UHGV virus genome: UHGV-0213691
Source: a virus
Reading direction: 5' to 3' (one strand)
DNA: 44,307 nt
Shown: one piece after another, positions 1,971 through 36,808 of the stretch
Layout: each line of letters begins with the position of its first letter
Numbering within the stretch: position 1 is the first letter of the stretch
Made by a program: the position numbers and the translations under genes
The notes under the pieces: model-generated
Told to the model about the DNA's origin: nothing
Database searches by the model: none
What the model saw: only the letters and a program-made list of their open reading frames with translations

Positions 1971-2194
1971 TACTCTTCCGATAGCTTCTCCAGTACAAAC
2001 GACAGCGTAGCATTAGCGGCATCTCTTTGCTGCCGTAGTCGTAGAACCTCCTCTTCGAGTTCCTTAACTTTTAAAGCAAGTTCAACTATCTCCGCACTGC
2101 CCACCGTTTCGTACGCGCGAGGGGATATTTTCTTACCACTTTCTAATGTCTTAAAACCCAACGCGGCGATTTCGCTAACACGACTACTCTTCAT
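1970..2194 (-). CDS. Hypothetical protein (74 aa, coiled-coil-like)
   Basis: ATG start overlaps helicase stop (ATGA); GAGG upstream; last gene of leftward operon before terminator. Confidence 0.4.
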   Translation of the reverse strand: MKSSRVSEIAALGFKTLESGKKISPRAYETVGSAEIVELALKVKELEEEVLRLRQQRDAANATLSFVLEKLSEE

Positions 2195-3615
2195 TTTTTA
2201 CCTCGTCTCTTCATGTAATTAAGCAACTCTTCCTGTACCGATTTCTTCTCGTCTGTACGCGCGGCGACAACCTCGTCCAGCGTGTCTTTAGCAACGATGT
2301 GGTACAGGAACACTGGTCGCTCGTGGCCTGCCTGTTTCTGGCGGACCGGGCCTATACGCTCGACAACCTGCAAATAGTGCTCAAGGTTCCAGCCTTGCGA
2401 AATAAACGCCAGATGATGTCCCCCATCCTGTAAATTCAAACCATGCCCGGCTGACGCAGGGTGGACGCACAAGATTTCGATTTCACCACGGTTCCACGCT
2501 TCCATCTGCTTATTACCCTTAGCCCCTTTGGCAAACGCCTGCGCCTGCGGGAATCGCTTAAGGATGCGCTCCAGTTCATGCTTGAACTGATAGGCCACCA
2601 GCAACGGTGCGCCCTGTAACTCCTCAACAATCGACTCCAGCGCGTCCAGTTTCGTATCGTGCACTTTCTCCCAGTCTTTCGTTGCTTCGCCGTCCGGCCC
2701 CGATACATACACGGCACCGGACGCAATCTGTAGGCACTTCGACGTCTTCGCCGCCGCATTAGCCGCTTCAACTTCCCCGCTCTCCAGTTCCGCGAATAAC
2801 TTCTCCTCCATATCGATGTACGCCTGACGTGCTTTCTTCGGCAGGTCGATTTCAACCGGCACAATAATCGGCGCTTCACACCCGAACCACTCGGCGGCGT
2901 CAATCGTAAGACTGATGTCCTTCATTTTCTGATGAATCTCATTATCCGCACCTGGTCGTGCGTGATACTCCCGCGCCATAGCTGACTTACCTTTCTGTAT
3001 CGAGTTAAACCAGCGGTCGGTGAATGCCGTGTAGGAAGAACCGAGTCGCTCGCCCGCGTCGATAAACCAGTTCTGGCCCCACAAGTCTTTGAGGCCGTTT
3101 GGCGACGGTGTACCTGTCAGGTTGATGAAACGCTTAACTTTACCGAACGCCACTTTACTAAGCGCCTTTGCTCTCTTGCTACCGCCTGAACGGCTGCGGA
3201 ACGATTTAAGCTTCGTGCTCTCATCAGCAACGATAACCGTAAAAGGCCAGTCGTCTTTGCCGTAGTAGTCAATCAACCACTCGATAACTTCGTAGTTCGT
3301 ACACACCACGTTAGCGTCAGACTCCAGCGCCGCGATGCGGCGTTTCTCTGAACCTGTTGCATCGACGACACGCAGACATGGGAACCGCCATTTCTCTTGT
3401 TCAGCGGGCCATGTACCGGATGCAACGCGCAGCGGGGCCAGGATTAACACTCGGTCGTCGTCATTAAGTTGCCCATTACGGAACAGTCGGTTTAAGGCCC
3501 ACAGTACGCTGCCAGTCTTCCCGGCGCCCATGCTTGCCCATATGTTGCAGCGATGGTGTCGCAACATGAACGAGGTCATGAGTTTCTGGTACTCGCGTCT
3601 TTGAAACTTACTCAT
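2191..3615 (-). CDS. SNF2/DEAD-like family helicase
   Basis: 474 aa; Walker A GAGKTG, DEAH-like VADESTK, ILAPLRVASGTW and LTGTPSPNGLKDLWGQ motifs. Confidence 0.85.
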   Translation of the reverse strand: MSKFQRREYQKLMTSFMLRHHRCNIWASMGAGKTGSVLWALNRLFRNGQLNDDDRVLILAPLRVASGTWPAEQEKWRFPCLRVVDATGSEKRRIAALESDANVVCTNYEVIEWLIDYYGKDDWPFTVIVADESTKLKSFRSRSGGSKRAKALSKVAFGKVKRFINLTGTPSPNGLKDLWGQNWFIDAGERLGSSYTAFTDRWFNSIQKGKSAMAREYHARPGADNEIHQKMKDISLTIDAAEWFGCEAPIIVPVEIDLPKKARQAYIDMEEKLFAELESGEVEAANAAAKTSKCLQIASGAVYVSGPDGEATKDWEKVHDTKLDALESIVEELQGAPLLVAYQFKHELERILKRFPQAQAFAKGAKGNKQMEAWNRGEIEILCVHPASAGHGLNLQDGGHHLAFISQGWNLEHYLQVVERIGPVRQKQAGHERPVFLYHIVAKDTLDEVVAARTDEKKSVQEELLNYMKRRGKK

Positions 3616-4537
3616 TTACCGCCCCCATGAACGCCTTTATAAATTCAGCGGCTACTTGCGGGACGATGGCATTGCCATAACCGCGCAATCGTCCCACTCT
3701 GGCGGGTATCCCATTAGCCAGCGGGAATGTGCCGGGTTCAACTGGCCGGAACTTTCCATCACGGCATCCGAGCCAGTCAGCATCTGACCAGAAGCCGTGA
3801 TGCGAATTGGTTGTGTTATTTTCAGACCCTGCTCCGTCGAGTAGTCCAGCCTGTCGAATGTCCTGTCCTTCCCGTCCTTGCGAATACCTGTCTTTCCGCT
3901 CCCCATGTAGTCGTTCGCTGTCGGTGTAGGCCAAGCCGCCAACGCGGCAGCCCATCCCAGTTTGTTCGGTTTCGTCCTGCCGTCTGTGCTGCGCATGTTC
4001 GCGTCGTTTGTTATCAGTGATACCGCCGGTGTGGGCCAGTCTGTGCGCGCCGAAGAAAAGTCTGTCGCGTTTGTGTGGCGCGCCGACGCTACAAGCTGGG
4101 AGTACCGCAAACCCGACGGCGTAGCCTTCTCCCTCCAGGTGAGTTTGTAAGTCGCACATCCACGATTTTGCAATTGCTGGCGCAACCTGTTCACCAAAGA
4201 GGACTGGAGGGCAGCACTCGCTGATGAGGTCAAGGAATACGGGCGCGAGGTGTCTTGGGTCGAACTGTCCGAGTTGCTTTCCTGCCGCGCTAAACGGTTG
4301 GCAAGGCGGGCTTCCCGTCCAGAGAGGCGTATCTTCCGAAACTCCCGCAAGTCTGAGCGCGAGAGGCCAGCCGCCGATACCAGCGAAAAAATGACACTGG
4401 GTGAACCCGTCGAGGTCTTCAGGTTTAACTTCGGTAATGCTTCTTTCATCTACAATTCCAAAAGGTATGTGACCCTGCTTTATTAATTCACGCAGCCACG
4501 CGGCTGCGCCTTTATCCCACTCATTGTAATAGTTCAT
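3608..4537 (-). CDS. DNA (cytosine-5)-methyltransferase-like protein, compact
   Basis: 309 aa; motif I FAGIGG, motif IV PPCQPFS (PCQ Cys), FGEQV (ENV-like), HKRDRLFF (RxR), GNAIVPQV; only about 20 aa between motifs I and IV. Confidence 0.6.
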   Translation of the reverse strand: MNYYNEWDKGAAAWLRELIKQGHIPFGIVDERSITEVKPEDLDGFTQCHFFAGIGGWPLALRLAGVSEDTPLWTGSPPCQPFSAAGKQLGQFDPRHLAPVFLDLISECCPPVLFGEQVAPAIAKSWMCDLQTHLEGEGYAVGFAVLPACSVGAPHKRDRLFFGAHRLAHTGGITDNKRREHAQHRRQDETEQTGMGCRVGGLAYTDSERLHGERKDRYSQGREGQDIRQAGLLDGAGSENNTTNSHHGFWSDADWLGCRDGKFRPVEPGTFPLANGIPARVGRLRGYGNAIVPQVAAEFIKAFMGAVNE

Positions 4538-4725
4538 TTCGCCACCAGTACCAGCTCTTTACGCCCGAACGCCGTAACGTTTCCGGTTACGTCTTCAATA
4601 ACCAGTTTACCGTCCGACTCGACGAACACCGTATCGACGGCAACAGGCCGACGGGTCTTAACGTTGAAAATCATGTCACCCGGTACGATGTCACGTGCTG
4701 GTTTGCGGTCATATTCGTGTTTCAT
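4534..4725 (-). CDS. Hypothetical protein (63 aa)
   Basis: ATG with AAGGA RBS; stop overlaps MTase start (ATGA). Confidence 0.45.
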   Translation of the reverse strand: MKHEYDRKPARDIVPGDMIFNVKTRRPVAVDTVFVESDGKLVIEDVTGNVTAFGRKELVLVAK

Positions 4726-4755
4726 TTCTCAATTCCTTATATTGTTGGTGTAGGA

Positions 4756-5040
4756 CTAACTATAATAGTTCGCTATTAGGTCGTCAACCTCTTCTTTTGT
4801 TCCTACTACAAAAACATTTGCGTCACGTTTACGAAGCCGTTTGTGTTCCCGCAACTGATGGGCCTCCGGTTCCGTGTTTTCGTCTTTCTTCACCTCGACG
4901 AACCATATCACCCCTCCCGGAAGTACTACTAGCAGATCAGGCGCTCCGTTTCTACCCTCATACACCATCTTACGTACGAGGCCACCGAGGGCCTCGAATC
5001 GCTCTTTTGCGTATTTCTGGATGCGGCCCTCTTTAGTCAT
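4756..5040 (-). CDS. VRR-NUC domain nuclease
   Basis: 94 aa; PD-(D/E)xK-type signature PDLLVV...FVEVKK. Confidence 0.7.
   Translation of the reverse strand: MTKEGRIQKYAKERFEALGGLVRKMVYEGRNGAPDLLVVLPGGVIWFVEVKKDENTEPEAHQLREHKRLRKRDANVFVVGTKEEVDDLIANYYS
4759..4787 (-). promoter_or_regulatory. Sigma70-like promoter (TTGACG-17-TATAGT) with operator AATAG-N4-CTATT (4764-4777)
   Basis: Read on minus strand; hexamers with 17-bp spacer; lies inside the 3' end of the VRR-NUC ORF. Confidence 0.45.
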
Positions 5041-5189
5041 GGCCGCAGAATCCAGGTGAGGAAAGCCCCGCCGATGGTGGCAACGCCAACAAACTTAAAG
5101 AACAGGCCGTAGCAGAACATCGCGGCTATTCCCGCACCGAGTAACAGTGCGAGCATGGTTACTATCGTCCAAAATACAAACATTGTCAT
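5037..5189 (-). CDS. Small membrane protein (50 aa, 2 predicted TM helices)
   Basis: Not in ORF track (<60 aa); ATG with GAGGGG RBS; stop overlaps VRR-NUC start (ATGA); hydrophobic. Confidence 0.35.
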   Translation of the reverse strand: MTMFVFWTIVTMLALLLGAGIAAMFCYGLFFKFVGVATIGGAFLTWILRP

Positions 5190-5275
5190 AATACGCACCC
5201 CTCACGTTTAGTGTGTTCAATCCCGCAGCGCGGGCAGATTCGGCAGTCTTCTTCATATAACCGGTAAATTTTCAT
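5186..5275 (-). CDS. Tiny Cys-rich ORF (29 aa, CxxCxxC)
   Basis: ATGA-coupled between two other tiny ORFs; MKIYRLYEEDCRICPRCG... Confidence 0.2.
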   Translation of the reverse strand: MKIYRLYEEDCRICPRCGIEHTKREGCVL

Positions 5276-5403
5276 TCCAGCACCCACAGATACATCGCAA
5301 TGAGCATGCATAGTACCGCAACCACCATGCCGTATTGTCCTTCGTGACAGTAGACACCGGCGGCGAACCCCGCCAGTACCGCGATAATAAGTTTACTTAG
5401 CAT
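5272..5403 (-). CDS. Small membrane protein (43 aa)
   Basis: ATG overlaps 3' end of polymerase gene; hydrophobic MLSKLIIAVLAGFAAG...; ATGA-coupled downstream. Confidence 0.3.
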   Translation of the reverse strand: MLSKLIIAVLAGFAAGVYCHEGQYGMVVAVLCMLIAMYLWVLE

Positions 5404-7666
5404 AACGGTACACCTCTTCCCCGGCCCACGTTAGCGGGAATCCTTCAGCCCATTCAGGTAATGAGCATAATAGGTCGCCCATCTCTTTAACCGTGTACTC
5501 CGGTGTGTCTGGTGTTTCGGCGACGCATTCGTCATGTACGTGAAGTACAATTGGGTAGCCCGCTGCCTCGACCGTCAGGAGTCCGTTAACCAGTAAATCA
5601 CGACACAACGCCTGGATAATGTTTTCACACAATTTTCCGCCGTGTGTGTACAAAGTTGTCCACTGGCGGGTGGTCTGATTTTCGCCCTGGTATTTAATGC
5701 GAACGTTAGTTGTTACGCGCCCGTCCTCGTCGGTCTCTTTAGTAACGCTCAGACCTATGCCGGGGTATGACATGATGCGCCCTGACGGCAGTTCTACACA
5801 CAACCACCAACCCGGCACAAAGTTACCCTGTCTGTCTTTCTCTTTAGTACGCCAGATGCGGATAGCTCTGTCGCCGTTGAGGCGGACTCTGGCCCCCGCC
5901 CAAAACTCTCGTCCCGGATTTCTGATTGCAGCAATTACCGAATCCTTAAGGTCGTTCCAGAATTTCACTGTTTCCGGGTGGGCTTCCCGCCACATGCGCT
6001 TGATAGCATCGCAAGTGCGCCAGACTTCTTTAGGCAGCACATAAGAGGCCCGTTCATCTTTTTTACCGGGTTTTGGGGGTCGTTTAGCCTCCTGAATTCT
6101 GGCCCATTCGTAGCCACGGGCGGTAGCCGCCCAAATGTGGTCGGGGAACGTGCCCCGCATTGTCTCTGTCATTTTAAAGAGGTCCAGCCCGTAAGTTTTA
6201 GCCATAGTCATAAAAGCCCCTACGCCCCCCTCGTAGCCGAGGCCGAGTTCGCAACATTTCCCGACCTGACGTAGGTCCTTACGGGTGGCTTTTAGTTCTA
6301 CGGGGTCCATGCCAAACATCTTGCCCGCGGTGGCGCAATAAATATCAATCCCTGCGCGGAAGGTCTCAAGCGCGGATGTCTCCCCCGCGGTCCAGGCCAA
6401 CCCGCGCCCTTCTACGTTTGAGTAGTCGGCAACGAGCAACTTACTACCCTTTTCAGGGATGATGCAACTGCGAACAGTCGAGGCTGTCAGCTTGGATACG
6501 TCGAAACGACGGTGCGCCCGACCCTTTAGCAGCAGATTGATGCCGAACGATAGGGGGTTGAGACGACGGTTCCAGTCTTCGTCGGACTCCCACGGCTGGC
6601 GTACAAGTTTCTTCTCCTCGTTAGTCGGGTCATCATGATAGTACCCGCGCGACAGGTTCTGCGGCTGGAACCCTTTACCCGCAAATCGTAAAGTGCGCTT
6701 TGCCCCACCGTACTGGATGCAACCGCGGCGGCGGCCGTCTTTGGACCGTCCTAGCAGGAGCGGTTTGTATTTTGTCGACGCCGTGGAGGCCGCGCCGAGG
6801 CGCATCTCAATGATTGTGCGCGCATCGTCAGGTAAGTCGTCGTCCTCTAGCAAACCTTCGAGCGTTGCTTTCTGCGCATTATAGATATTGTAGGCCGGTG
6901 CCAGCTCCCGAAGGATTGGCAGGAAGTCTTTACCCGTTAGCTTCCCGCCAAATTTAGCCCTGGCCTCGTTTTTTAGCTCTTGCTTGTGGCGTTCAACTGC
7001 TGCTACCGCCGCCTCAGCAAGAGCCGCATCAACAAAGAAGCCTCGGTCGTTGATTAACTGGTCAAGTTCAAGTACACGGTCCTCGAAATCGGAGTTACCC
7101 CAACGTGGCAGCTTATGGAAGACTTCACGCATCGCTGTGATGTCGCTCACGGCGTACTTGATGAACAGCGCCCATTCGTCCGGGTGCGTTTCGGCGGTGT
7201 AGCGGCGGATTTTATAGTTCTTCGGGGTTGGTTTGGAGAAACGCTGAATCAGAGCCTTGCCACGTTTATCTTTCGCGTTGTCGGCGGATACGCCCAGCAC
7301 TTCGCATAATGCGTCAAGTGAACCCGGCAGCGCGTGGCGAAACGCCCAAATCATAGTGTCAATGGTGTTGCTGACCGGAATATCGAAGCCCCAGCAGTTC
7401 TTCATGATGAGCCTATCGAAAAGTCCACCGTTATGCCACACCATCTTAATGCGACTGTTTGGCTTCACCAGACGGCGTAACGCGCGGTGTAAATCTCCCG
7501 GCATGTCGCTGCCGTCAGTGCAGTCCCATACCTGAACAGGCTCGTCATCAAAAGCATAGGTGCAGATGAGCACTTCGGTAGTCGGGTGTTCGGCGTAAGC
7601 ATAGGAGCCGACTTTCTTCAAATCGGCTTCGGAGAAGGTTTCAAAGTCTAAGAACAGATAACTCAT
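5393..7666 (-). CDS. Family A DNA polymerase with 3'-5' exonuclease domain
   Basis: 757 aa; Exo I LDFETFS; motif A DYSNVEGR; motif B RKDLRQVGKCCELGLGYEGG; motif C VHDE. Confidence 0.9.
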   Translation of the reverse strand: MSYLFLDFETFSEADLKKVGSYAYAEHPTTEVLICTYAFDDEPVQVWDCTDGSDMPGDLHRALRRLVKPNSRIKMVWHNGGLFDRLIMKNCWGFDIPVSNTIDTMIWAFRHALPGSLDALCEVLGVSADNAKDKRGKALIQRFSKPTPKNYKIRRYTAETHPDEWALFIKYAVSDITAMREVFHKLPRWGNSDFEDRVLELDQLINDRGFFVDAALAEAAVAAVERHKQELKNEARAKFGGKLTGKDFLPILRELAPAYNIYNAQKATLEGLLEDDDLPDDARTIIEMRLGAASTASTKYKPLLLGRSKDGRRRGCIQYGGAKRTLRFAGKGFQPQNLSRGYYHDDPTNEEKKLVRQPWESDEDWNRRLNPLSFGINLLLKGRAHRRFDVSKLTASTVRSCIIPEKGSKLLVADYSNVEGRGLAWTAGETSALETFRAGIDIYCATAGKMFGMDPVELKATRKDLRQVGKCCELGLGYEGGVGAFMTMAKTYGLDLFKMTETMRGTFPDHIWAATARGYEWARIQEAKRPPKPGKKDERASYVLPKEVWRTCDAIKRMWREAHPETVKFWNDLKDSVIAAIRNPGREFWAGARVRLNGDRAIRIWRTKEKDRQGNFVPGWWLCVELPSGRIMSYPGIGLSVTKETDEDGRVTTNVRIKYQGENQTTRQWTTLYTHGGKLCENIIQALCRDLLVNGLLTVEAAGYPIVLHVHDECVAETPDTPEYTVKEMGDLLCSLPEWAEGFPLTWAGEEVYRYAK

Positions 7667-7677
7667 TATTTTGACCC

Positions 7678-7705
7678 TTAGTAAAAAGGCCCAATAAAGG
7701 GCCTT
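7678..7705 (-). terminator. Intrinsic terminator/attenuator between SSB-like gene and polymerase gene
   Basis: Minus-strand AAGGCCC-loop-GGGCCTT hairpin followed by TTTTT, 12 nt upstream of pol ATG. Confidence 0.45.
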
Positions 7706-7724
7706 AATTAAACAGATTCAGATA

Positions 7725-8357
7725 TTAACCACGGCGACGACGTTCGCGGCGCGGTGCTTCATCTTCTTCGTCGTCTTCCAGGTCGTCGGTGCTCGCTACT
7801 ACACTGGAGCCGCCGAAGCGTTTACCTTCGCCCATATACTTGATGCCGAGGATGGTAGCGCACAGGTTTTTCCAATCTTTGTGCCACCATAATTCTACAG
7901 ATACGTTTGCGATACATCCGCTATATACCTGCTCGCCTTCTATTTCTTTCCCGTCGATGTTGAAATCAGGCTCGGTTTGTTTTTCACCTTTAGCCGATGT
8001 CATAATCACCGGTTGGCGGTTGTTTGTAGCGCGGAAATACAGACCTTCTTCAAAATCCTCAATCGGATTATCTCGCATTGCCAGGTCACGGACGCAGCAT
8101 TTGTCTGCGTGGTGGTCTACACCGTAGTTGGCCTTCATCCATTTCTCGGCAGCAGCGGCCCCGATTGCATCTGTTACAACTTCCAACGCGGTGTCGTAAA
8201 GCGCATCAATTTGAGGATGGTCAGGCTGCATAAGAACAGTAACCTGATACTTACCCTTAATCAGTTTACCGGTTTTCTTGTCCTCAGAGTCGGCGGCACG
8301 TTCAAATACGTTAACCCAGGCAGTGTTTACTTTACGCAGATTCAGTTTAATACCCAT
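7725..8357 (-). CDS. Putative ssDNA-binding protein (DUF2815-like) with acidic C-terminal tail
   Basis: 210 aa; N-terminal VNTAWVNVFERA...KYQVTVLM pattern; DDLEDDEEDE tail; classic position beside DUF2800 and Pol A genes. Confidence 0.45.
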   Translation of the reverse strand: MGIKLNLRKVNTAWVNVFERAADSEDKKTGKLIKGKYQVTVLMQPDHPQIDALYDTALEVVTDAIGAAAAEKWMKANYGVDHHADKCCVRDLAMRDNPIEDFEEGLYFRATNNRQPVIMTSAKGEKQTEPDFNIDGKEIEGEQVYSGCIANVSVELWWHKDWKNLCATILGIKYMGEGKRFGGSSVVASTDDLEDDEEDEAPRRERRRRG

Positions 8358-8411
8358 CTTGATTTCTCGCTTTTAAGTTTACTCCGGGAAGCTGCCCGGC
8401 CAGTGATTAGA

Positions 8412-8440
8412 ACTATAATAGTTAACTATTCAGGTGTCAA
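8412..8440 (-). promoter_or_regulatory. Sigma70-like promoter (TTGACA-17-TATAGT) with perfect palindrome AATAGTTAACTATT (8417-8430)
   Basis: Consensus -35, 17-bp spacer, operator overlapping spacer and -10; upstream of SSB-like gene. Confidence 0.55.
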
Positions 8441-8673
8441 CCCTTCCAGCCAGTTATTTTCTCAACTATCAGTACGTATTCGAAAGGCCCCTCCAAATTC
8501 TGCACCCATTTAATTTCCTTCGTTGAGTCAAGTTGCTCGGGGTCTACCGTTTCGTACTTAATCGCAACGTAGACCGTGAGCGGAAGAAGGATAACTAGAA
8601 GCGGCACTAACATTGCCCAGTAAACTACGAAGGCCACAAGCCCGCCAAGCACCCTGAACATTTTACGAATCAT
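8437..8673 (-). CDS. Small membrane protein (78 aa)
   Basis: ATG at 8673 with GAGGAGGA RBS; hydrophobic core LVAFVVYWAMLVPLLVILLPLTVYVAI; ATGA overlap with DUF2800 stop. Confidence 0.4.
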   Translation of the reverse strand: MIRKMFRVLGGLVAFVVYWAMLVPLLVILLPLTVYVAIKYETVDPEQLDSTKEIKWVQNLEGPFEYVLIVEKITGWKG

Positions 8674-9944
8674 TCTAAATCCTCCTCTGTTACCTGATTC
8701 CACTCAGGACGTTTATCGTCTGCCGTTGCAACACATGGCGCGCCAGGCTTACGGGTCACGAGTTTAGCCAATTCTTCCCACAGTTCTGGGTCAATTTTAC
8801 CTATGGTTTTTTCTGCTTCTGTTGGGGTAACTGGCACTAGTTTATCTAATAAGTAGCCGTTTACATGGTTTTCTCTGAATTTATTTACTGCGTCTTCATC
8901 TTTCCACGCACGATTACCGGGACGACCTTCAACCAGCTTGTACCCAGGCACTTTCTTACCTGAATGCAACGCAGCAGCCATAGCTCTCTCCACCTTGTCG
9001 ATGTGCTGGCGCAACAACGGCAACTTCTCATACTCAGCTGCGAGTTGCTCTGGTGTAAGCTCCAGTGCAAAGTCGTCTTCCAGTTCTTCCGCCAGCACCG
9101 AGTTAACTGTTTTTGTACGCGCTGCGCACTGTTCGGAGAACCGACACCACTGACAACCATCTGCCGATGGCTTGAAGTCCGACGCTTTCAGGTTCTTCTT
9201 GCCACGTGAATAGGCGTCAAGCGCTAACAGAGCGCGTTTCTGTGCGAACTTAGCGAACAGTTCCAGACCTTCAACCGAGATGTCACACTCGGACGCACCG
9301 CCAGCATACGGCTGGAAGATAACAAGACGAACAACTGTGATGTTATAACGTCTCCTGAGTCGGCGATAAACACCGAGAGCGTAAAGCATTAGCTGCTTGT
9401 TTTCTTTCGCTTCGACACGATGCCGTCCCGTTTTAAGGTCGCCAATAATGAGCATGTGCTCGTCAGTGTTTGCCAGTTCCTGAACGGCAACAAGGTCGGC
9501 GGTGCCGAACGTCTCAATGCCTTCGTAGCCCGGATGCAATACCTCAGTAAGATTGACGCGCATTTCCAGCTTGGCGTAAGTCGCTACATCGATAATCGCT
9601 TTGCAGTAATCGGTGTACTTGCGCACCTGCTCAATCATATCCGTCGTAATCAGTACCGCACCTTTCATCGGGCTTATTAGCGCCTTAATCTGGCCTTTAC
9701 CTTCATCCAGCACGTAAGCACCGACTTCACGCTCTAATGGCAACGCAGTACCGCGTATATAGGCGTTGAGATGTACCTCAGCTATGGTGTGACACGCGGT
9801 CCCTATAACGGCGGATTTACCCGAAGTGTTAGGAATATCTTTTTCACAGGCCAGTGACGCCGCGCATGACAGCCACTTTTTCGCCCCAGACGGCGACAGT
9901 AAGGCGTGCACATCGTTATTGCCACCGCGTTCCTTTAAAATCAT
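8670..9944 (-). CDS. DUF2800-like PD-(D/E)xK nuclease with C-terminal Cys cluster (Cas4-like)
   Basis: About 424 aa from ATG 9944 (track start 9959 is GTG); N-terminal LSPSGAKKWLSCAASL; C-terminal CQWCRFSEQC cluster. Confidence 0.65.
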   Translation of the reverse strand: MILKERGGNNDVHALLSPSGAKKWLSCAASLACEKDIPNTSGKSAVIGTACHTIAEVHLNAYIRGTALPLEREVGAYVLDEGKGQIKALISPMKGAVLITTDMIEQVRKYTDYCKAIIDVATYAKLEMRVNLTEVLHPGYEGIETFGTADLVAVQELANTDEHMLIIGDLKTGRHRVEAKENKQLMLYALGVYRRLRRRYNITVVRLVIFQPYAGGASECDISVEGLELFAKFAQKRALLALDAYSRGKKNLKASDFKPSADGCQWCRFSEQCAARTKTVNSVLAEELEDDFALELTPEQLAAEYEKLPLLRQHIDKVERAMAAALHSGKKVPGYKLVEGRPGNRAWKDEDAVNKFRENHVNGYLLDKLVPVTPTEAEKTIGKIDPELWEELAKLVTRKPGAPCVATADDKRPEWNQVTEEDLE

Positions 9945-10213
9945 ACCCTGCTCTCCCACTGGTCAATTAAATGTCGTGTCTTATGTTCGCAGTGCATAGC
10001 CCACCCATACATCGACTCGAAGACATAAAAGTCAGGTTTGGCAAATGTCGTGCGCTTAATCTGCGACACGTGACGGCCTATATCTTTAGGCCGCGGTACT
10101 TTGCCTAAGTACGCCATCTCTTTCATCTGGTGCGCACCGGACGGCGCACGCAACAGCCATAGCGCCTCTGTGTTATCCCGCCTGTCTACGGCGCGATAGA
10201 GTTGGTAAATCAT
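9941..10213 (-). CDS. Hypothetical protein (90 aa)
   Basis: ATG with GAGGA RBS; its first 28 codons are duplicated at 10693-10769. Confidence 0.5.
   Translation of the reverse strand: MIYQLYRAVDRRDNTEALWLLRAPSGAHQMKEMAYLGKVPRPKDIGRHVSQIKRTTFAKPDFYVFESMYGWAMHCEHKTRHLIDQWESRV
10137..10213. repeat. Direct repeat copy 1 (77 bp; 63-bp identical core 10151-10213)
   Basis: Near-identical to 10693-10769; covers the 5' coding end of gene 9941-10213 and stops at its start codon. Confidence 0.85.
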
Positions 10214-10232
10214 GTGCTTATCCTCAAAGTCA

Positions 10233-10252
10233 CCCGGCGCCGAAGCGCCGGG
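10233..10252. promoter_or_regulatory. GC-rich perfect hairpin (CCCGGCGC-CGAA-GCGCCGGG) in intergenic spacer
   Basis: 8-bp stem, 4-nt loop, no U-tract; between Tad2-like gene and next gene. Confidence 0.35.
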
Positions 10253-10260
10253 CCGGTTGA

Positions 10261-10524
10261 TTATTCTTCGTTATCGTCCAAAATAATCCAGTCGTAAGAC
10301 AGGACATCAGTTTGCGATGCCAACCACGGTACTAATTTATCATCGGCAGTTTTCATGCAAATAAATGATAGTGTTTCAATACCATCAACGCCTTCGACAT
10401 CAGATTCAAAGCTCCAATGGTTGCCGACGACGAGGAAAAGGAACATATTTTTACCATTCCACCCACCGCGCGCAACACGGTGCCCGATAGCTAACGCTTT
10501 AGTTGCTTCCCCGAAATTAATCAT
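10261..10524 (-). CDS. DUF2829-like protein (Tad2-type candidate anti-Thoeris cyclic-nucleotide sponge)
   Basis: 87 aa; FGEA..AL..G.RVARGGWNGK.MFL and MKTADDKLVPWLASQTDVLSYDW match the remembered DUF2829 signature; ATG with GAGGAG RBS. Confidence 0.45.
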   Translation of the reverse strand: MINFGEATKALAIGHRVARGGWNGKNMFLFLVVGNHWSFESDVEGVDGIETLSFICMKTADDKLVPWLASQTDVLSYDWIILDDNEE

Positions 10525-10528
10525 GTCA

Positions 10529-10769
10529 TTACTCCTCTATATCGTAATACTTAGCGACAATGGCTTTCAGTTCCTTGTGGAACTCCTGCACCTGGAGGTC
10601 CTTCAGCTTTTTGACTGAACGGGCATCATATCCGTCCAGCAGGTCGTCCAGCTCGTCGGCGCAGTCGTCAGAATCGCCGCTGCCGATGTGCTCCGGACGG
10701 TGCGCGCAACAGCCATAGCGCCTCTGTGTTATCCCGCCTGTCTACGGCGCGATAGAGTTGGTAAATCAT
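10529..10769 (-). pseudogene. Mosaic gene remnant: duplicated 28-codon N-terminus fused out of frame to a paralogue of the acidic protein C-terminus
   Basis: ATG at 10769 reads MIYQLYRAVDRRDNTEALWLLRAPSGAH then stops at 10668; the +1 frame continues for 70 codons ending at 10529-10531 and resembles the C-terminus of ORF 10813-11340. Confidence 0.3.
10693..10769. repeat. Direct repeat copy 2 (77 bp; 63-bp identical core 10707-10769)
   Basis: See copy 1; the two copies bracket a 556-bp segment containing the Tad2-like gene. Confidence 0.85.
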
Positions 10770-10812
10770 AATTCCGACCCTCAGTTAAAGCGGCCAGAAG
10801 GCCGCGAGATAG

Positions 10813-11340
10813 TTATTCTTCTTCGAAGTACTTGTTCTTGATTGCCGTCAGGCGTTCCAGGTATTCAGCCAGGTCTTCGTCTTTAATCGCGGCAATCTTC
10901 ATTTTCTTACCGGTGAACTCTTCCAGCAGTTCATCAGAATCATCGCACGCTGCATCGCTCGGACCTTCGTTAATCGCATCATCAATAGCCTGAATCTGGT
11001 CACGCAGAGACTGGTAATCGACTTCTTCTTTCTCTTCTTCCGGCTCTGGCGTCGGCTCCTCTACTTTAGCTTTACGTGGCTTACGTTTAGGCTTCTCTTC
11101 TTCTGGTTTAGTGTCAACGACGTCTTCACCTTCTACCGGGATTTCTTTTTTAATGCTGGATTTTTGTAATTCTAATGTATGTTCGAGTTCAAGTTTCTCT
11201 TTAGCCACCTCGTGCTTGGCAATGGCGATATTTAGTTTTGTGTCCAGTTCTTTCGATGATGCTTGTTTCACGCTATTCGCAGCAATCAGTTCATGCGCAA
11301 CTACGAAACGTTCCAGTAATACTAAGAATTTCTCTAACAT
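10813..11340 (-). CDS. Highly acidic, E/K-rich early protein (175 aa)
   Basis: First gene of leftward operon; GAGGAGAG RBS; long acidic low-complexity stretches. Confidence 0.55.
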   Translation of the reverse strand: MLEKFLVLLERFVVAHELIAANSVKQASSKELDTKLNIAIAKHEVAKEKLELEHTLELQKSSIKKEIPVEGEDVVDTKPEEEKPKRKPRKAKVEEPTPEPEEEKEEVDYQSLRDQIQAIDDAINEGPSDAACDDSDELLEEFTGKKMKIAAIKDEDLAEYLERLTAIKNKYFEEE

Positions 11341-11371
11341 TTGTTTCTCTCCTCTCGTTTGGTATGGGCTA

Positions 11372-11400
11372 ACTATAATAGCGAACTATTCACTTGTCAA
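11372..11400 (-). promoter_or_regulatory. Leftward early promoter (TTGACA-17-TATAGT) with operator AATAGCGAACTATT (11377-11390)
   Basis: Consensus -35, 17-bp spacer; in divergent control region. Confidence 0.6.
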
Positions 11401-11464
11401 TGGGCTTTTCTAAAATAATTAATATGGTACTATTCACATATCAACTGACTAAGGAGTAATCGAC
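11401..11464 (+). promoter_or_regulatory. Rightward promoter/operator region for the HTH gene (degenerate operator AATATGGTACTATT 11421-11434; RBS AAGGAG)
   Basis: TACTAT -10-like hexamer at 11428-11433 but no clear -35; strong RBS 11451-11456. Confidence 0.35.
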
Positions 11465-11680
11465 ATGCAACCATCCGAACTAGGCATCCGTGTAGAACAA
11501 CGCCGTAAAGAACTAGGCATCTCCCAGCGCCGTCTTGCGGTCCTGGCCGGCGTTTCCCAGGGCGCGATTAACCAGCTTGCGCTCGGGGTAACTCAGGACG
11601 TCCGCCCGGCGACGCTGTTTAAACTGGCGGAAGTGCTGCAAGTAGACGCCAAGTGGTTGGCGTTCGGTGAAGGGGCTTAA
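11465..11680 (+). CDS. XRE-family helix-turn-helix transcriptional regulator (Cro/CI-like)
   Basis: 71 aa; HTH signature ELGISQRRLAVLAGVSQGAINQLALG; divergent from leftward early operon. Confidence 0.75.
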   Translation: MQPSELGIRVEQRRKELGISQRRLAVLAGVSQGAINQLALGVTQDVRPATLFKLAEVLQVDAKWLAFGEGA

Positions 11681-14023: not shown

Positions 14024-14257
14024 TTATTCCAGGTCTTCTAAAGTGGCTGTCATTCCGCGAACTTCGGCAACGGCACTATATTTCCCACCAACATTTTTCA
14101 CGGCACCAGATTTAACCAGTACCCTCAATGACCCTTCAATAATGGCAGAACTATAGTACTTAAAATAACTGCGGCGCAAGTCGATAACGCTGCACGACCC
14201 TTTTTTACGTGTTAACGAAACGACCGCCGTAAATACGCGTGACTGGAACTCGGTCAT
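14024..14257 (-). CDS. Hypothetical protein (77 aa)
   Basis: ATG start overlaps upstream gene stop (ATGA). Confidence 0.45.
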   Translation of the reverse strand: MTEFQSRVFTAVVSLTRKKGSCSVIDLRRSYFKYYSSAIIEGSLRVLVKSGAVKNVGGKYSAVAEVRGMTATLEDLE

Positions 14258-14424
14258 TTCACGTTCTCCTTAATCCACGCTTCCACCTTCTCCGGGTCAA
14301 ACGTACCTGGCTGACGGCGACCCATAATGCGAATACAGCAATCCGGGAACTTCCCGCTCTTTAACCAGTTATTCAGCGTGCGACGAGTAACTCCTATACG
14401 CTCCGCTACCTCATTCTGTGTCAT
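14254..14424 (-). CDS. AlpA/excisionase-like HTH DNA-binding protein
   Basis: 56 aa from ATG 14424 with GAGGG RBS (track start 14457 is TTG); MTQNEVAERIGVTRRTLNNWLKSGKFP. Confidence 0.55.
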   Translation of the reverse strand: MTQNEVAERIGVTRRTLNNWLKSGKFPDCCIRIMGRRQPGTFDPEKVEAWIKENVK

Positions 14425-14456: not shown

Positions 14457-14485
14457 AGTATACATTGCGAATAATGGGAAATCAA
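14457..14485 (-). promoter_or_regulatory. Candidate leftward promoter (TTGATT-17-TATACT)
   Basis: Hexamers with 17-bp spacer read on minus strand, just upstream of ATG 14424. Confidence 0.3.
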
Positions 14486-14575
14486 ACATAATCGCACCTA
14501 TTGACATTAAGAAAATCTTCGTTTAAGGTGCTTCTATATCTTAGTTACTTTGATTCCTGTTCACCTTGTAAGAAT

Positions 14576-14607
14576 GTTTAACCCGTGCGACAAGCAAAGG
14601 GTTAAAC
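14576..14607. other. Stem-loop (9-bp stem GTTTAACCC/GGGTTAAAC, 14-nt loop) in noncoding region
   Basis: Perfect inverted repeat; no flanking ORF. Confidence 0.4.
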
Positions 14608-14762
14608 ACAGGCTTACTGAACATGAGAATTATCGTAACTTTCCTTCCTAAGTATCTCCGGTTGCCATGGGCAAGCTCTATTCTCATCGGCAGCATATCT
14701 CTTAAGTATATGATTTTCTTAATGTGCCGTAGATTCGCAACCGTAAAAATGTAACGATTATT

Positions 14763-14790
14763 GGGCAGGCTTAAGGCCTGCCCTTTAGTT
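14763..14790. terminator. Hairpin GGGCAGGC-TTAA-GGCCTGCCC followed by TTTAGTT (terminator-like)
   Basis: Stable hairpin in 450-bp noncoding region; short T tract on plus strand. Confidence 0.4.
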
Positions 14791-14855
14791 ACCAAGTAAT
14801 AAGAATAAAGGCGCAACCTTCCCCAAAGAATCACAACGGCAACGTAACTATTCTC

Positions 14856-14884
14856 TTGCACACCCCAACATAATAGGATACTAT
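14856..14884 (+). promoter_or_regulatory. Rightward promoter (TTGCAC-17-TACTAT) with operator AATAGGATACTATT (14872-14885)
   Basis: 33-bp block TTGCACACCCCAACATAATAGGATACTATTCAC, near-identical to promoters at 27937-27965 and 37164-37192. Confidence 0.6.
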
Positions 14885-14918
14885 TCACTTATCGAAACGA
14901 GACAGAGGAGTGGGTGTT

Positions 14919-15891: not shown

Positions 15892-15937
15892 CAGGTGGTG
15901 TAACAGGTCAATAGGTTACTATTTTACTGAGTGACTT

Positions 15938-15970
15938 ACGCTGCTGTGTAGCAGCGTATCATTTTTCTCA
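15938..15970 (+). terminator. Intrinsic terminator
   Basis: ACGCTGCT-GTGT-AGCAGCGT hairpin followed by ATCATTTTT; operator-like AATAGGTTACTATT sits just upstream at 15910-15923. Confidence 0.6.
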
Positions 15971-16206: not shown

Positions 16207-16235
16207 TTGCACACTAAGATAGAATAGGCTACTAT
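16207..16235 (+). promoter_or_regulatory. Rightward promoter (TTGCAC-17-TACTAT) with operator AATAGGCTACTATT (16223-16236)
   Basis: Same architecture as 14856-14884. Confidence 0.55.
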
Positions 16236-16266
16236 TCATATACACAGATGAGGGGAGAGACAGAAG

Positions 16267-19079: not shown

Positions 19080-19100
19080 TTTATTTTCTGCAATGACTAG

Positions 19101-19129
19101 TTGACTATTACCCTAGACCCTATTATATT
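19101..19129 (+). promoter_or_regulatory. Sigma70-like promoter (TTGACT-17-TATATT)
   Basis: Directly after terminator; contains ACCCTATTATATT, related to the spacer of the TTGCAC promoters. Confidence 0.45.
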
Positions 19130-24567: not shown

Positions 24568-24572
24568 AGAAA

Positions 24573-24600
24573 AGGCCCCATAAGGGGCCTTAGACTTTTC
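24573..24600. terminator. Bidirectional intrinsic terminator
   Basis: AGGCCCC-ATAA-GGGGCCT hairpin; T-rich on minus side, TTTTCC on plus side. Confidence 0.65.
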
Positions 24601-24904
24601 CTATTAGTTTTTTAATTCTATCGCGTTCCATTCTTTTTCCTTCCTCTACACCCTCATTGAAGTATCTTTCTGCATCTTCATCGTTGGACTTACGAACTGC
24701 GGCACCCTCTCTATATAGCTCTTGATTGTCGCGCAATACCTTAATCTTAGCTATTATTTCGTTAAAAGGTGCGTCAGCACGTATTTTAAGCATAGACCTT
24801 ACCTGCTCTACGAACCAAGCAAAATTAGGCTTTTTTGCTAATTTATCTCTTAAAACAGCGTTCTCTTGTTCCGCTTTTGTGGCGCGAGCACGATAATCAA
24901 TCAT
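24590..24904 (-). CDS. Reverse-oriented moron: hypothetical charged protein (104 aa)
   Basis: ATG with GAGAGG RBS; own promoter and terminator; AT-richer than flanks. Confidence 0.5.
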   Translation of the reverse strand: MIDYRARATKAEQENAVLRDKLAKKPNFAWFVEQVRSMLKIRADAPFNEIIAKIKVLRDNQELYREGAAVRKSNDEDAERYFNEGVEEGKRMERDRIKKLIGKV

Positions 24905-24946
24905 TTTAGTAAACCTCTCTTTCCGTTCAATAGCACCTATACGTGA

Positions 24947-24975
24947 ATAGTACCCTATTATACTGGTGTCTGCAA
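24947..24975 (-). promoter_or_regulatory. Moron promoter (TTGCAG-17-TACTAT) with operator AATAGTACCCTATT (24946-24959)
   Basis: Same conserved architecture as 27937-27965 and 37164-37192. Confidence 0.55.
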
Positions 24976-26524: not shown

Positions 26525-26527
26525 TAA

Positions 26528-26554
26528 AAGGCCCCGTTAAGGGGCCTTAGTTTT
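26528..26554. terminator. Bidirectional intrinsic terminator
   Basis: AAGGCCCC-GTTAA-GGGGCCTT followed by AGTTTT. Confidence 0.7.
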
Positions 26555-27271
26555 AAGTAACCATTCCGTTACTGTAGGGGGTTTAACCATTTCTATGGTG
26601 TGCCTCATTATAGCGGTTCGATGTAGTTTGTCTGTTATGTTAGGTAGTCTTGCTTTAGTTTTTGGCACATTTATAGCTACGTTTGTACTGTCAGCGCTGT
26701 CGAAAGGATAACGGCTTAGAGCCCTCCCATCCAGCATTCTAAGGCCATGGAGTTTTACATCCAATTTTCTGTTTCTATAAACCGCATTAAACGCCTGGTC
26801 CATTCTTTTCTCCCATGACTTAGACCGTATGGCCCTGTGCGGTCCGCAGCAACCTATCGCTACCCGATTGAACCCACGGCACAGCTTTACTAGTCTTCTT
26901 ATGCTTTCGTCACTGTGCCACACCGGGACTGCCTTAGACCTTAACCAATCTGGGACAGTTTCTATTAATGCGTCGTTCTCTTCCTCCGTGCCCTCTATAA
27001 CGTCCGGTATAATGAACCACTCAATACGACTGAACCACTCTCCGACAAAATCATAATATCCTGCCCAATGGGCGCTCCAGTCTATGTTGTCAGGTGCTTT
27101 CTTCCATGTCGAAAAAGCTCCGTTGTCCAACACTAATTTACATCTCAAGGCGGCGATTTTTTGTATTTGGTCAGGGCGGGCATATGACACCAGAGCGCCA
27201 CCCCCACGGTACAATGCTTTTATAAGCTCATCCCCACCCCAAATAGGACCCCCGTGGTAATGCACCGTCAT
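26537..27271 (-). CDS. dpdA: tRNA-guanine-transglycosylase-fold protein, DpdA-like (candidate 7-deazaguanine DNA transglycosylase)
   Basis: 244 aa; VLDNGAFS resembles the TGT substrate-Asp motif (L)TDSGGFQ; FDSADSTNVA resembles the TGT catalytic region DMFDCVxPTRNA; no C-terminal CxCxxC-H zinc subdomain; ATGA-coupled to upstream transporter gene. Confidence 0.5.
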   Translation of the reverse strand: MTVHYHGGPIWGGDELIKALYRGGGALVSYARPDQIQKIAALRCKLVLDNGAFSTWKKAPDNIDWSAHWAGYYDFVGEWFSRIEWFIIPDVIEGTEEENDALIETVPDWLRSKAVPVWHSDESIRRLVKLCRGFNRVAIGCCGPHRAIRSKSWEKRMDQAFNAVYRNRKLDVKLHGLRMLDGRALSRYPFDSADSTNVAINVPKTKARLPNITDKLHRTAIMRHTIEMVKPPTVTEWLLKTKAP

Positions 27272-27732
27272 TTAATTTTCCTCAACAAGAAAGACCACAA
27301 AGCTCCGCCAAAAACCTTAGCCGCGAATTGGCCCAGTACGACTAGCGGCATGAAAGAACCGAAAGCTATTAGTGGGAAAATAAAAGAGTCCGCCGCCGAG
27401 GCCGCGGTATTACTTACATTTGACTTAACTAGCCACTTTTTATTGATTAGTGCCTGGTAAACAACGGCATCCAGGATGGCAGCACAAGCGAAGGCAACAA
27501 CGCTTGCCACAGCAATCTTTCCGGTTGCCGGGTTTATGGAGAAACTTATAATGCCAGCTACTAGTATCAGTATGAATATTTTTTGTACGCCAATCCTCTC
27601 GTGCAACTTATCTCTTATTACGAAATCAAGCCCAATAAGTAGAAAGGCATTTACCGGTGTCGCTAACGGACCAAACACAGTTACCGAAAAGTTAGCAGCG
27701 CATATCGCCGCTACGTAAATTGCATACATCAT
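27268..27732 (-). CDS. Polytopic membrane protein, YhhQ/VUT-family-like (candidate queuosine-precursor transporter)
   Basis: 154 aa, several hydrophobic helices; GLDFVIRDKLHERIG, AAILDAVVYQALI and SAADSFIFPLIAF resemble remembered YhhQ motifs. Confidence 0.4.
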   Translation of the reverse strand: MMYAIYVAAICAANFSVTVFGPLATPVNAFLLIGLDFVIRDKLHERIGVQKIFILILVAGIISFSINPATGKIAVASVVAFACAAILDAVVYQALINKKWLVKSNVSNTAASAADSFIFPLIAFGSFMPLVVLGQFAAKVFGGALWSFLLRKIK

Positions 27733-27733
27733 A

Positions 27734-27895
27734 TTAGCGCCCCCAGTTACGGGCAGCGTTTGCCACTAGTGCAATCGTTTCTTCGAAAATGTAGTCAAGT
27801 TTAACAATCTGACGCATTTTACGGCGGAACTTACGTTTGTCCCCATTTTTCGAACTTAAATTAGTATTTACGGTAATTCTTTTTGCTAATTTCAT
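27734..27895 (-). CDS. Small basic protein (53 aa), first gene of moron operon
   Basis: Not in track; ATG with GGGAG RBS; stop 1 nt before transporter ATG. Confidence 0.3.
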   Translation of the reverse strand: MKLAKRITVNTNLSSKNGDKRKFRRKMRQIVKLDYIFEETIALVANAARNWGR

Positions 27896-27936
27896 TTTCC
27901 ATCTCCCATTTAAGTTAACATTGTTGGTGTAAGTGA

Positions 27937-27965
27937 ATAGTACCCTATTATGTTGGGGTGTGCAA
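27937..27965 (-). promoter_or_regulatory. Moron promoter (TTGCAC-17-TACTAT) with operator AATAGTACCCTATT (27936-27949)
   Basis: 33-bp block identical to the promoter at 14856-14884 except one base. Confidence 0.6.
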
Positions 27966-28017: not shown

Positions 28018-28060
28018 AACTATTCGAATAGTTGACTTTTCACTGAAAATGTGCTAAGCT
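28018..28060 (+). promoter_or_regulatory. Rightward promoter (TTGACT-17-TAAGCT) abutting perfect 16-bp palindrome AACTATTCGAATAGTT (28018-28033)
   Basis: Hexamers at 28032-28037 and 28055-28060; the palindrome has the operator half-sites in inverted order. Confidence 0.45.
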
Positions 28061-33776: not shown

Positions 33777-34189
33777 TGGGCTACTTTGAGGACTTAACCA
33801 AAGCGTTCGACGTGCCGCTGGTAGCCTTCGGAACCGCCAACGGCATCAAGGTAGCGCTTGAAAACATCGACGCGCCGACGTCAACCGATACGCCATATCT
33901 GGCGAGTTACATGTTACTAGCGGATACGGAACAGGCGGATTTGTTCTTCACGGAACAACGTGCGGGCGTCTATCAGGTAGATATTAACTACGCATCGGTG
34001 AAAGGTAGCGCGCCAATCAATAAAATGGCAGACTTACTTAACACGGCGTTTAAAGCAGGTAAGTCATTTTCACGTAACGACATCTGCGCCGAGGTTCAAT
34101 CGGTTAGCCTGGGGCCGCTGATTGTAGAAAACGGATGGGCCAAAAGACCATTGTCAATTAACTTTATTGCATTCACCAAGAGGCTGTGA
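33773..34189 (+). CDS. Putative tail terminator / tail completion protein
   Basis: 138 aa; ATGA-coupled; immediately upstream of major tail gene. Confidence 0.4.
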   Translation: MMGYFEDLTKAFDVPLVAFGTANGIKVALENIDAPTSTDTPYLASYMLLADTEQADLFFTEQRAGVYQVDINYASVKGSAPINKMADLLNTAFKAGKSFSRNDICAEVQSVSLGPLIVENGWAKRPLSINFIAFTKRL

Positions 34190-34191
34190 AT

Positions 34192-35358: not shown

Positions 35359-35362
35359 AACT

Positions 35363-35386
35363 AAGGCCCCTTTCGGGGCCTTTTCT
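35363..35386. terminator. Bidirectional intrinsic terminator
   Basis: AAGGCCCC-TTTC-GGGGCCTT followed by TTTC; A-run upstream. Confidence 0.75.
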
Positions 35387-35616
35387 TACTCGTCAATGTT
35401 ACTTCGGTATTCCCGTAACTTCTCGAGACTTTCGATTGCTTCCGCTAAGTCTGTTCCGGTGTCTTTGTGGCCTCGCAAGCCCATGCACAATAGCTTCTTC
35501 AATGCGTGCTGTAACGCCGGGTCCCGGATATCGAAGGCGCGCAGCACATCGTAGACGTCTACTGTCATAGTGCTGCCGTGAGTGTTTGTCATTGTTCGGT
35601 TGTATTTTGAAGTCAT
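35386..35616 (-). CDS. Hypothetical protein (76 aa), last gene of reverse island
   Basis: ATG overlaps phosphoesterase stop (ATGA); MTVDVYDVLRAFDIRDPALQHALKKLL. Confidence 0.45.
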   Translation of the reverse strand: MTSKYNRTMTNTHGSTMTVDVYDVLRAFDIRDPALQHALKKLLCMGLRGHKDTGTDLAEAIESLEKLREYRSNIDE

Positions 35617-36743: not shown

Positions 36744-36808
36744 TCTTACGTCCTCGTGTTTAGGATTTGTCCTATTTAACCACAGTGCATTCCTTTAAAT
36801 AAAGGCGA

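Follow-up and report, generated by a model that had tools for sequence, protein, structure and literature searches.

The 33-bp block that recurs five times in the window (the whole stretch of 44,307 nucleotides analysed here) is probably a host sigma-70-type promoter fused to a 14-bp operator of a 71-aa Cro-like protein, an arrangement that would join the genes behind these promoters into one regulon. Together with a common terminator, the block also marks the junctions at which related phages exchange accessory-gene cassettes. The feature itself is real, and the interpretation given by the first-pass annotation, in which these blocks were seen as the promoters of the early genes and of three reverse-oriented moron islands, is correct for the most part but does not cover everything.

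The window covers nearly the whole of a circularly permuted Kagunavirus genome (Guernseyvirinae), whose identity to Bas73 and to other E. coli phages is about 90-92%. The window has a GC content of 0.51 and no matches to tRNAs or Rfam families. Its layout, along with the coordinates of the features discussed below, is collected in Table 1.

Table 1. Layout of the window and features under discussion, by position; promoters and operators are predictions
Feature	Position	Strand or direction	Remarks
Tailspike gene	end at 1941
Near-identical bidirectional terminator family AAAAGGCCCCnnnnGGGGCCTT	1944-1967, 7684-7707, 24570-24593, 26527-26550, 35361-35387		at every convergent junction
Replication module	2191-11340	leftward
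Class B promoter TTGACG-N17-TATAGT	4759-4787	-	palindrome 4764-4777 in spacer; heads methylase/helicase genes
Class B promoter TTGACA-N17-TATAGT	8412-8440	-	palindrome 8417-8430; heads SSB/DNA polymerase genes
Class B promoter TTGACA-N17-TATAGT (11/12)	11372-11400	-	palindrome 11377-11390; divergent from regulator gene
Imperfect operator AATATGGTACTATT	11421-11434	+	44 bp before regulator start codon
Gene of 71-aa HTH_3 protein, 434 Cro family (Cro-like regulator)	11465-11680	+ (rightward)	lone gene; candidate operator binder
Primase-helicase/HTH_17 operon	11698 to about 14424	leftward
Gene of 56-aa HTH_17 (excisionase/AlpA-like) protein	14257-14424	-	alternative candidate binder
Class A block	14856-14888	+	palindrome 14872-14885 over -10 region; heads rightward small early ORFs
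Small early ORFs	from 14910 on	rightward	lysis genes after them
Extra exact palindrome	15910-15923		no convincing -35; just upstream of terminator 15937-15958; in about 7/37 relatives
Diverged class A block	16207-16239	+	palindrome 16223-16236; predicted second rightward promoter, after terminator 15937-15958
Near-palindrome ACTAGTTGACTATT	19096-19109	+	holds -35 of TTGACT-N17-TATATT; ahead of small genes and terminase
Late genes	from 21254 on		broken up by three leftward islands
Island 1: one 104-aa ORF	24590-24904 (coding)	-	GC 0.39; extent 24572-24904 with bidirectional terminator 24572-24591
Class A block	24943-24975	-	palindrome 24946-24959; heads island 1
Island 2: 53-aa ORF, 154-aa YhhQ/Vut_1-like ORF, 244-aa DpdA-like ORF	26528-27895 (coding 26537-27895)	-	GC 0.40-0.47; bidirectional terminator 26528-26548
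Class A block	27933-27965	-	palindrome 27936-27949; heads island 2
Near-palindrome AATAGTTGACTTTT	28027-28040	+	holds -35 of TTGACT-N17-TAAGCT; 91 bp from island-2 block
Island 3: 108-aa ORF, 376-aa metallophosphoesterase/DNA-repair exonuclease, 76-aa ORF	35363-37135 (coding 35386-37135)	-	GC 0.49-0.52; terminator 35363-35382
Promoter-like GTTACA-N17-TATATT	37153-37181	+	island-3 palindrome common to it and the leftward block
Class A block	37160-37192	-	palindrome 37163-37176; heads island 3

Next to the first of the rightward blocks, the ORF 14541-14888 (-), which corresponds to the hypothetical Bas73_0055 of Bas73 and has no PHROG family, has its start codon inside the operator and contains a strong terminator hairpin (14763-14783). 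The stretch of ~400 bp that separates the HTH_17 operon from the early promoter (14458-14855) may be non-coding, possibly with a role as an origin or in regulation. Elsewhere in the genome, an 83-nt direct repeat (10131-10213 and 10687-10769, 95% identical and 556 bp apart) spans the 5' end of ORF 9941-10213 (-) and that of a shorter ORF upstream, which look like two small paralogous genes with a common N-terminus.

The 33-bp block and the palindrome within it

A sequence search of the window returned the five blocks that had been claimed, with their coordinates, strands and mismatch counts all correct. Named here by their 5' ends, the 14856, 27965 and 37192 copies match the degenerate 33-mer without any mismatch and the 24975 copy with three, and the 16207 copy joins the set with three mismatches once the spacer is masked; in 100 shuffles, the number of chance matches to the 33-mer was 0.00. 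Over the 33 nt, the first three copies differ from each other at only one or two positions (one between 14856 and 27965, two between 14856 and 37192), the 24975 copy shows 3-5 differences from these three, and the 16207 copy shows 7-9 differences from every other copy. Beyond the edges of the block there is no such likeness, the flanking sequences being unrelated.

The geometry of these blocks, referred to here as class A, is TTGCAC-N17-TACTAT with a G at -14 and with the dyad AATAG-N4-CTATT lying over positions -19 to -6. Compared with the TTGACA/TATAAT consensus, class A reaches only 7 of 12 matches (3/6 and 4/6), with TTG, A-11 and T-7 kept. This score lies under the threshold of 9/12 consensus matches used in the promoter scan, which therefore misses these promoters. 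All five blocks point into the adjacent genes, with a predicted 5' UTR of about 20-36 nt and a purine-rich ribosome-binding site before the start codon, and we infer that transcription is initiated at them. As had been proposed, they sit as predicted promoters heading the rightward early cluster and all three reverse islands, so that each island would have its own promoter, the class A block at its head, and its own bidirectional terminator at its tail.

Other readings of the block itself were rejected. If it is read in the opposite direction, the would-be -35 is not conserved among the copies (except for the GTTACA at island 3), and if a CATAAT or TATAAT within the block is taken as the -10 hexamer, the -35 is placed outside the block, in unrelated sequence. 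A role as an RNA structure was also discarded, the folding being no better than that of shuffles on either strand (z of -0.1 and -0.76).

The 14-bp dyad is not confined to the blocks. In the window there are nine exact copies, against 0.03 expected, and 13 copies with at most one mismatch, against 0.96 expected; those lying outside the five blocks include the sites at 4764, 8417, 11377, 11421 and 15910. Repeat finding tied the block to 4753-4787, 8406-8440, 11366-11400 and 11419-11442. Eight of the nine exact dyads are located 20-50 nt upstream of a start codon, in a promoter-like context, with the site at 15910 as the exception. Three dyads, all leftward, belong to a second geometry (class B, TTGAC(A/G)-N17-TATAGT), which shows 10-11 of the 12 consensus matches and holds the dyad in the spacer, from -25 to -12. 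The site at 11421 has the class A geometry without a -35, and the one base by which it departs from the dyad (G to T) gives it a consensus extended -10 (TGGTACTAT); both the position and the mismatch of sites of this type are invariant in 37/37 relatives.

Two one-mismatch dyads overlap the -35 of rightward promoters. The 19096-type site is conserved among relatives, always with one mismatch, and the promoter at 28027 is predicted to be a rightward restart for the Rz, scaffold and capsid genes. Both dyads may be low-affinity operators on late promoters. In Jerseyvirus, a different near-dyad (AGTAGACTTCTATT) is found at the same spot as the rightward TTGACT promoters. At island 3, the promoter-like sequence on the plus strand is possibly a divergent promoter that restarts the transcription of the tail genes after the island.

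In a comparison of sites from the relatives (92 distinct ones of class A and 106 of class B), the half-sites proved to be as conserved as the hexamers or more, the central bases were free, and the other positions of the spacer were moderately conserved. Near-invariant half-sites around a free centre are typical of an operator that a dimeric protein recognizes and that can be separated from the hexamers. Two-fold symmetry, a length of about 14 bp, outer bases conserved around a variable centre and an overlap with promoters are all traits of 434 Cro-type operators, and all are seen in these sites. Since the dyad appears in different registers (class A, class B, the island-3 promoter of Jerseyvirus and the sites overlapping a -35), it can be regarded as a module separable from the promoter, and since it is also present in the promoters of the replication module and of the Cro-like gene, the palindrome is read as an operator that would define one regulon.

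A class A 38-mer is present in 222 phage records, which by organism name correspond to Escherichia, Salmonella and Kagunavirus phages and to a few Raoultella, Klebsiella and Shigella phages, with 2-4 copies per Kagunavirus record and mostly one per Salmonella (Jerseyvirus-type) record. Across 37 Kagunavirus contigs, the dyad sites are found in the same order and at approximately the same positions. In about 33 of the 37, the 14856-type block keeps a distance of +3.4 to +3.8 kb to the regulator gene, the others being truncated loci, and at island 3 every Kagunavirus-like contig has the block at -137/-138 from the tail-assembly-chaperone gene. The Jerseyvirus phages SETP7 and SE2 hold TAATAG-N4-CTATTA at the homologous promoters, and their island-3 promoter (TTGCAT-N17-TATTAT) has it in another register. 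In the complete genome of the Cornellvirus SP-031 (Salmonella phage FSL SP-031), AATAG-N4-CTATT is absent; the homologue of the 11377 promoter, located beside the regulator gene, has kept TTGCAC and TATAGT and has lost the symmetry of the spacer, and no replacement dyad was found in the early promoters of this phage. The only palindrome enriched in SP-031 is an exact GAATAAWTTATTC, present three times (0.08 expected) at 25438, 26069 and 26596, around reverse genes of the late region.

The conservation of the spacer had originally been explained either by selection on a protein-binding site or by recent duplication of promoter cassettes, and both readings hold, each for a different part of the block. 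Because the palindrome is kept in several registers and across genera, it is presumably the protein-binding site, while the rest of the block (ACACCCCAAYAT) would be due to duplication or exchange, because only recently related copies have it, at the recombination junctions of cassettes. As far as can be judged from the sequence, the block is best described as an operator-controlled promoter common to one regulon, which doubles as a cassette boundary.

Islands, terminators and cassette exchange

The reference of the first-pass annotation to all three islands is correct, since the late region has no further credible reverse genes. The term moron, which had been applied to each of them, suits islands 1 and 2, which are polymorphic and have a GC content of 0.39-0.47 compared with 0.51 for the genome. 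It does not suit island 3, which must be considered a core module, because its GC is genome-like and its exonuclease is a subfamily-wide core protein, conserved in Kagunavirus and Jerseyvirus.

The 244-aa protein of island 2 matches PHROG 887 ('queuine tRNA-ribosyltransferase', E 5e-84) and has no Pfam match, and the 154-aa ORF of the same island is a fragment-sized homologue of preQ0/preQ1 transporters (YhhQ/Vut_1-like) that scores under the curated cut-offs. No 7-deazaguanine biosynthesis genes are present, and island 2 may be a minimal DNA-modification cassette of the salvage type.

It had been suggested that a comparison with related phages would reveal whether morons and promoters move together, and in about 40 related contigs they do so for islands 1 and 2. 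The neighbourhood of the head-morphogenesis gene was compared in 74 contigs. The island-2 block is absent in 8/8 Kagunavirus contigs without island 2 and present in all of the approximately 27 that have the island, and in these relatives it lies 91 bp before a conserved rightward promoter. Relatives have the island-1 block, at -59 from the head-morphogenesis gene, only if they also have an island-1 gene. The cargo is very diverse, the 96 island ORFs falling into 43 clusters.

In four IMG/VR Kagunavirus contigs (L093, L096, L097 and L103), the match to the head-morphogenesis protein is broken after about 227-249 aa, and the downstream distances are increased by ~1 kb. This interruption is consistent with an intein, as has reportedly been found in the head-morphogenesis gene of phage Snoke.

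The terminators at 24570 and 26527 are recombination junctions of cassettes. Six cargo families are located in island 1 in some genomes and in island 2 in others, and one family of island cargo is also found in the early region of other genomes. The DpdA cassette of the window (26526-27965) occupies the island-1 position in contig L065, and its homology changes partner at one end within the terminator AAAAGGCCCC..GGGGCCTTAG and at the other within GAATAGTACCCTATTAT, that is, the palindrome. In five more island-1/island-2 pairs, homology starts in or at the terminator and stops 21-30 bp past the palindrome. The breakpoints coincide with the motifs, homology starting in or at the terminator in 6/6 exchanges between the two islands. 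The block of islands 1 and 2 at one end and the common terminator AAAAGGCCCC..GGGGCCTT at the other are the junctions used for the exchange of accessory cassettes among related phages.

A broader proposal is put forward here tentatively, namely that an operator-bearing promoter and a bidirectional terminator could constitute standard 'sockets' in Guernseyvirinae, among which accessory genes (including the DpdA DNA-modification cassette) would hop by short-homology recombination, moving between fixed sites in the late region and occasionally in the early region. The newcomers would thus fall under the Cro-type regulon, which would govern most of the non-structural transcription of a phage without cI or integrase.

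Candidate regulators and competing explanations

The 71-aa protein encoded beside two of the dyads belongs to the HTH_3 family (Pfam, E 1.2e-12). Its closest solved relative is 434 Cro (PDB, E 4.9e-7), which also has 71 aa and is 42% identical over the full length, and it is 45-48% identical to the true cro of RCIP0098, a lambdoid phage of Klebsiella whose operators are 14-bp ACAA-N6-TTGT sites. The two dyads are located at -88 and -44 from the start codon of the regulator, 44 bp apart, in 37/37 relatives, which is an autoregulatory layout. The presence of these two candidate operators at its gene in every relative, together with its kinship to Cro, makes this protein the preferred binder. In Bas73 (L001, PQ850603.1), a Cro-like gene 94% identical to that of the window lies unannotated at 34027-34239 (+), where the record has only a tiny reverse ORF.

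According to the preferred reading, each 33-bp block would combine a host sigma-70-type promoter with the two-fold-symmetric operator AATAG-N4-CTATT. The same operator would lie in the spacer of the three strong leftward promoters of the replication module, and a weakened copy of it in the promoter of the 71-aa gene. A dimer of the Cro-like protein would bind to these operators and, as the protein accumulates, would turn down all the promoters that carry them, including its own. One regulon would thereby unite the three backward-facing islands with the replication genes and the rightward early cluster, and the bidirectional terminators would keep it apart from the surrounding structural genes.

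The dyad might instead be bound by the 56-aa HTH_17 protein, which is excisionase/AlpA/MerR-like and made from an immediate-early promoter without operator, and such a protein could switch the weak class A promoters either on or off. This alternative appears rather unlikely, even though several observations agree with it. From Kagunavirus to Jerseyvirus, the HTH_17 protein keeps 88% identity and an invariant helix-turn-helix, which matches the unchanged half-site, whereas the Cro-like protein keeps only about 51% identity although the half-site is the same. The distribution of HTH_17 also follows that of the palindrome, as the protein is present in 443 phage records, nearly all of them from Kagunavirus or Jerseyvirus, and was found neither in the complete SP-031 genome nor in the partial 13.4-kb contig L042, both of which are also devoid of the palindrome. 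However, this distribution cannot separate the two candidates, because the Cro-like protein of SP-031 and L042 is strongly diverged too (about 40%), and a comparison of the recognition helices of both proteins across Kagunavirus, Jerseyvirus and contig L041 does not separate them either. In the only RNA-seq study of a Kagunavirus, a gene-level one on K1B4, the HTH_17 orthologue (gene 008) is among only four genes classified as 'early' (PMC12645636). The weak hexamers of class A would suit the need for a helper, but a site over the -10 hexamer is not an activator position. Moreover, the promoter-like site of the HTH_17 gene itself (14485-14457) holds no palindrome, whereas two flank the Cro-like gene, and small winged-helix proteins of the excisionase type (Xis, Cox, BldC) typically bind to arrays of direct repeats, and not to 14-bp dyads.

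Pfam and PHROG scans of the nine early ORFs and of the ORF 10813-11340 of the replication module revealed no other DNA-binding protein. The host regulators CRP, ArgR and Fur were set aside as binders on the basis of their consensus sites, in which the spacing of the half-sites differs from that of the dyad.

A second alternative concerns the direction of the regulation, the operator binder being an activator and the blocks positively controlled middle promoters instead of repressible early ones. The poor hexamers of class A, with their 7/12 matches, would be explained in this manner, but the class B promoters are near-consensus (11/12) and need no activator, and the positions occupied by the dyad (-19 to -6 in class A, within the 17/18-bp spacer in class B) are those where bound proteins normally exclude the polymerase. 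Activation from the spacer, of the type described for MerR, requires a spacer of 19-20 bp. The RNA-seq data place most genes, as well as the island gene 045, after the earliest class (PMC12645636), which would agree with activation, and yet with these sites an activator is quite unlikely.

It is very unlikely that no dedicated regulator exists and that the blocks are simply one promoter copied by duplication and gene conversion, with the palindrome as a sequence favoured in promoters by the host RNA polymerase. This would account for the three copies that differ by 1-2 nt only, the more so as homogenisation is to be expected of blocks that are recombination junctions, and a TATTATA-like sequence is partly self-complementary anyway. 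Nevertheless, the dyad is found in at least three registers with respect to the hexamers, in promoters that otherwise show no likeness; both half-sites are conserved around a free centre; the dyad persists across genera with diverged flanks; and the homologue in SP-031 has the hexamers without the dyad.

Earlier papers have already reported the motif, as a 'phage promoter' found with PHIRE. It is the same as that reported as tgAATAGTa-ccTATTat-T in phage fBC-Eco01, where it was ascribed to a phage RNA polymerase (PMC9825357), and as the element TAATAGTACCCTATTATGTT in SGP-C (PMC8790156), and seven PHIRE promoters have been reported in Golestan (PMC7203180). The assignment made for fBC-Eco01 is wrong, and a promoter for a phage-encoded RNA polymerase has practically no chance of being the explanation, as neither the window nor the annotations of three relatives contain an RNA polymerase gene and every ORF of more than 600 aa corresponds to a tailspike, DNA polymerase, primase-helicase, tape measure or tail protein. 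In these PHIRE papers the motif is listed and nothing more, and the literature searched yielded no account of the dyad, of the two geometries, of the link with a Cro-like protein or of the cassette junctions.

Timing of expression, related systems and significance

The islands had been thought to be expressed with the early genes and not with the structural genes around them. In K1B4, the first gene of island 3 (gene 045, on the minus strand, just before the chaperone gene) groups with the DNA polymerase and the methylases, and not with the flanking structural genes, in a group that was labelled 'late' (PMC12645636). In that same study the phage reads peaked at 8.9% of the total, which indicates that the infection was poorly synchronised. 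The grouping of gene 045 fits a co-regulation with the operator-bearing promoters of the replication module, and it does not fit the label 'early'. Since the element would also control these predicted replication promoters, it is more accurate to assign the islands to the same regulon as the early/middle genes than to call them early, and this regulon would not be simply early either, because the lysis genes lie downstream of the 16207 block without a strong terminator between them. Expression of the islands during replication is argued from the function of their genes, which include a homologue of a DNA-modifying transglycosylase and, in relatives such as SE2 and SETP7, a superinfection-immunity protein.

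With the Cro and cI proteins of phage 434 and their 14-bp OR/OL operators (ACAA-N6-TTGT), the proposed system has in common a single-domain HTH_3 regulator of 71 aa and dyads of 14 bp, conserved in their outer bases and free in the centre, which overlap promoter elements; two of these dyads flank here the regulator's own gene. In contrast to 434, the phage analysed here has no cI partner, integrase or tripartite OR switch; the half-site is AATAG instead of ACAA, and the recognition helix is SQGAIN instead of KQQSIQ. In addition, this phage, of a kind generally treated as virulent, has at least 10 single candidate operators at dispersed positions in its genome.

The morons of lambdoid phages, a concept of Juhala and Hendrix, are extra genes with their own promoter and terminator, inserted between genes that are adjacent in relatives, and with a lower GC content. 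Islands 1 and 2 are alike in all of these respects: own predicted promoter and terminator, placement and lower GC. Unlike lambdoid morons, they have one common predicted phage promoter-operator instead of individual promoters, and their expression would be tied to a lytic regulon and not to the prophage state; island 3, as mentioned above, is a core module.

A further likeness exists with the mobile regulatory PeSL (promoter-early stem-loop) cassettes of T4-type phages, in which a repeated sigma-70-like promoter and stem-loop terminators surround variable ORFs, mostly unknown, and in which the breakpoints of insertions, deletions and replacements between close relatives fall within the motifs (Arbiol et al. 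2010, PMC2839356; Comeau et al. 2014, PMC4122927). Both features are also observed here. In PeSL, however, promoter and stem-loop form one short unit, whereas here they are located at opposite ends of an inverted cassette within the late operon, 0.3-1.8 kb apart; the promoter moreover carries a candidate operator, and the phage is a siphovirus of 44 kb.

Phages of the genera Kagunavirus and Jerseyvirus are isolated widely for use in therapy and biocontrol, and the BASEL collection now includes them, but the regulation of their genes is essentially unstudied. If the proposed mechanism is true, one small protein of the Cro family and a 14-bp site would explain the coordination of early, replication and accessory genes in a siphovirus of the virulent type. 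The junctions formed by block and terminator would likewise account for the ability of accessory and candidate anti-defence genes, such as dpdA, to pass from phage to phage without losing their correct expression, and they would represent natural, ready-made insertion sites for engineering payloads.
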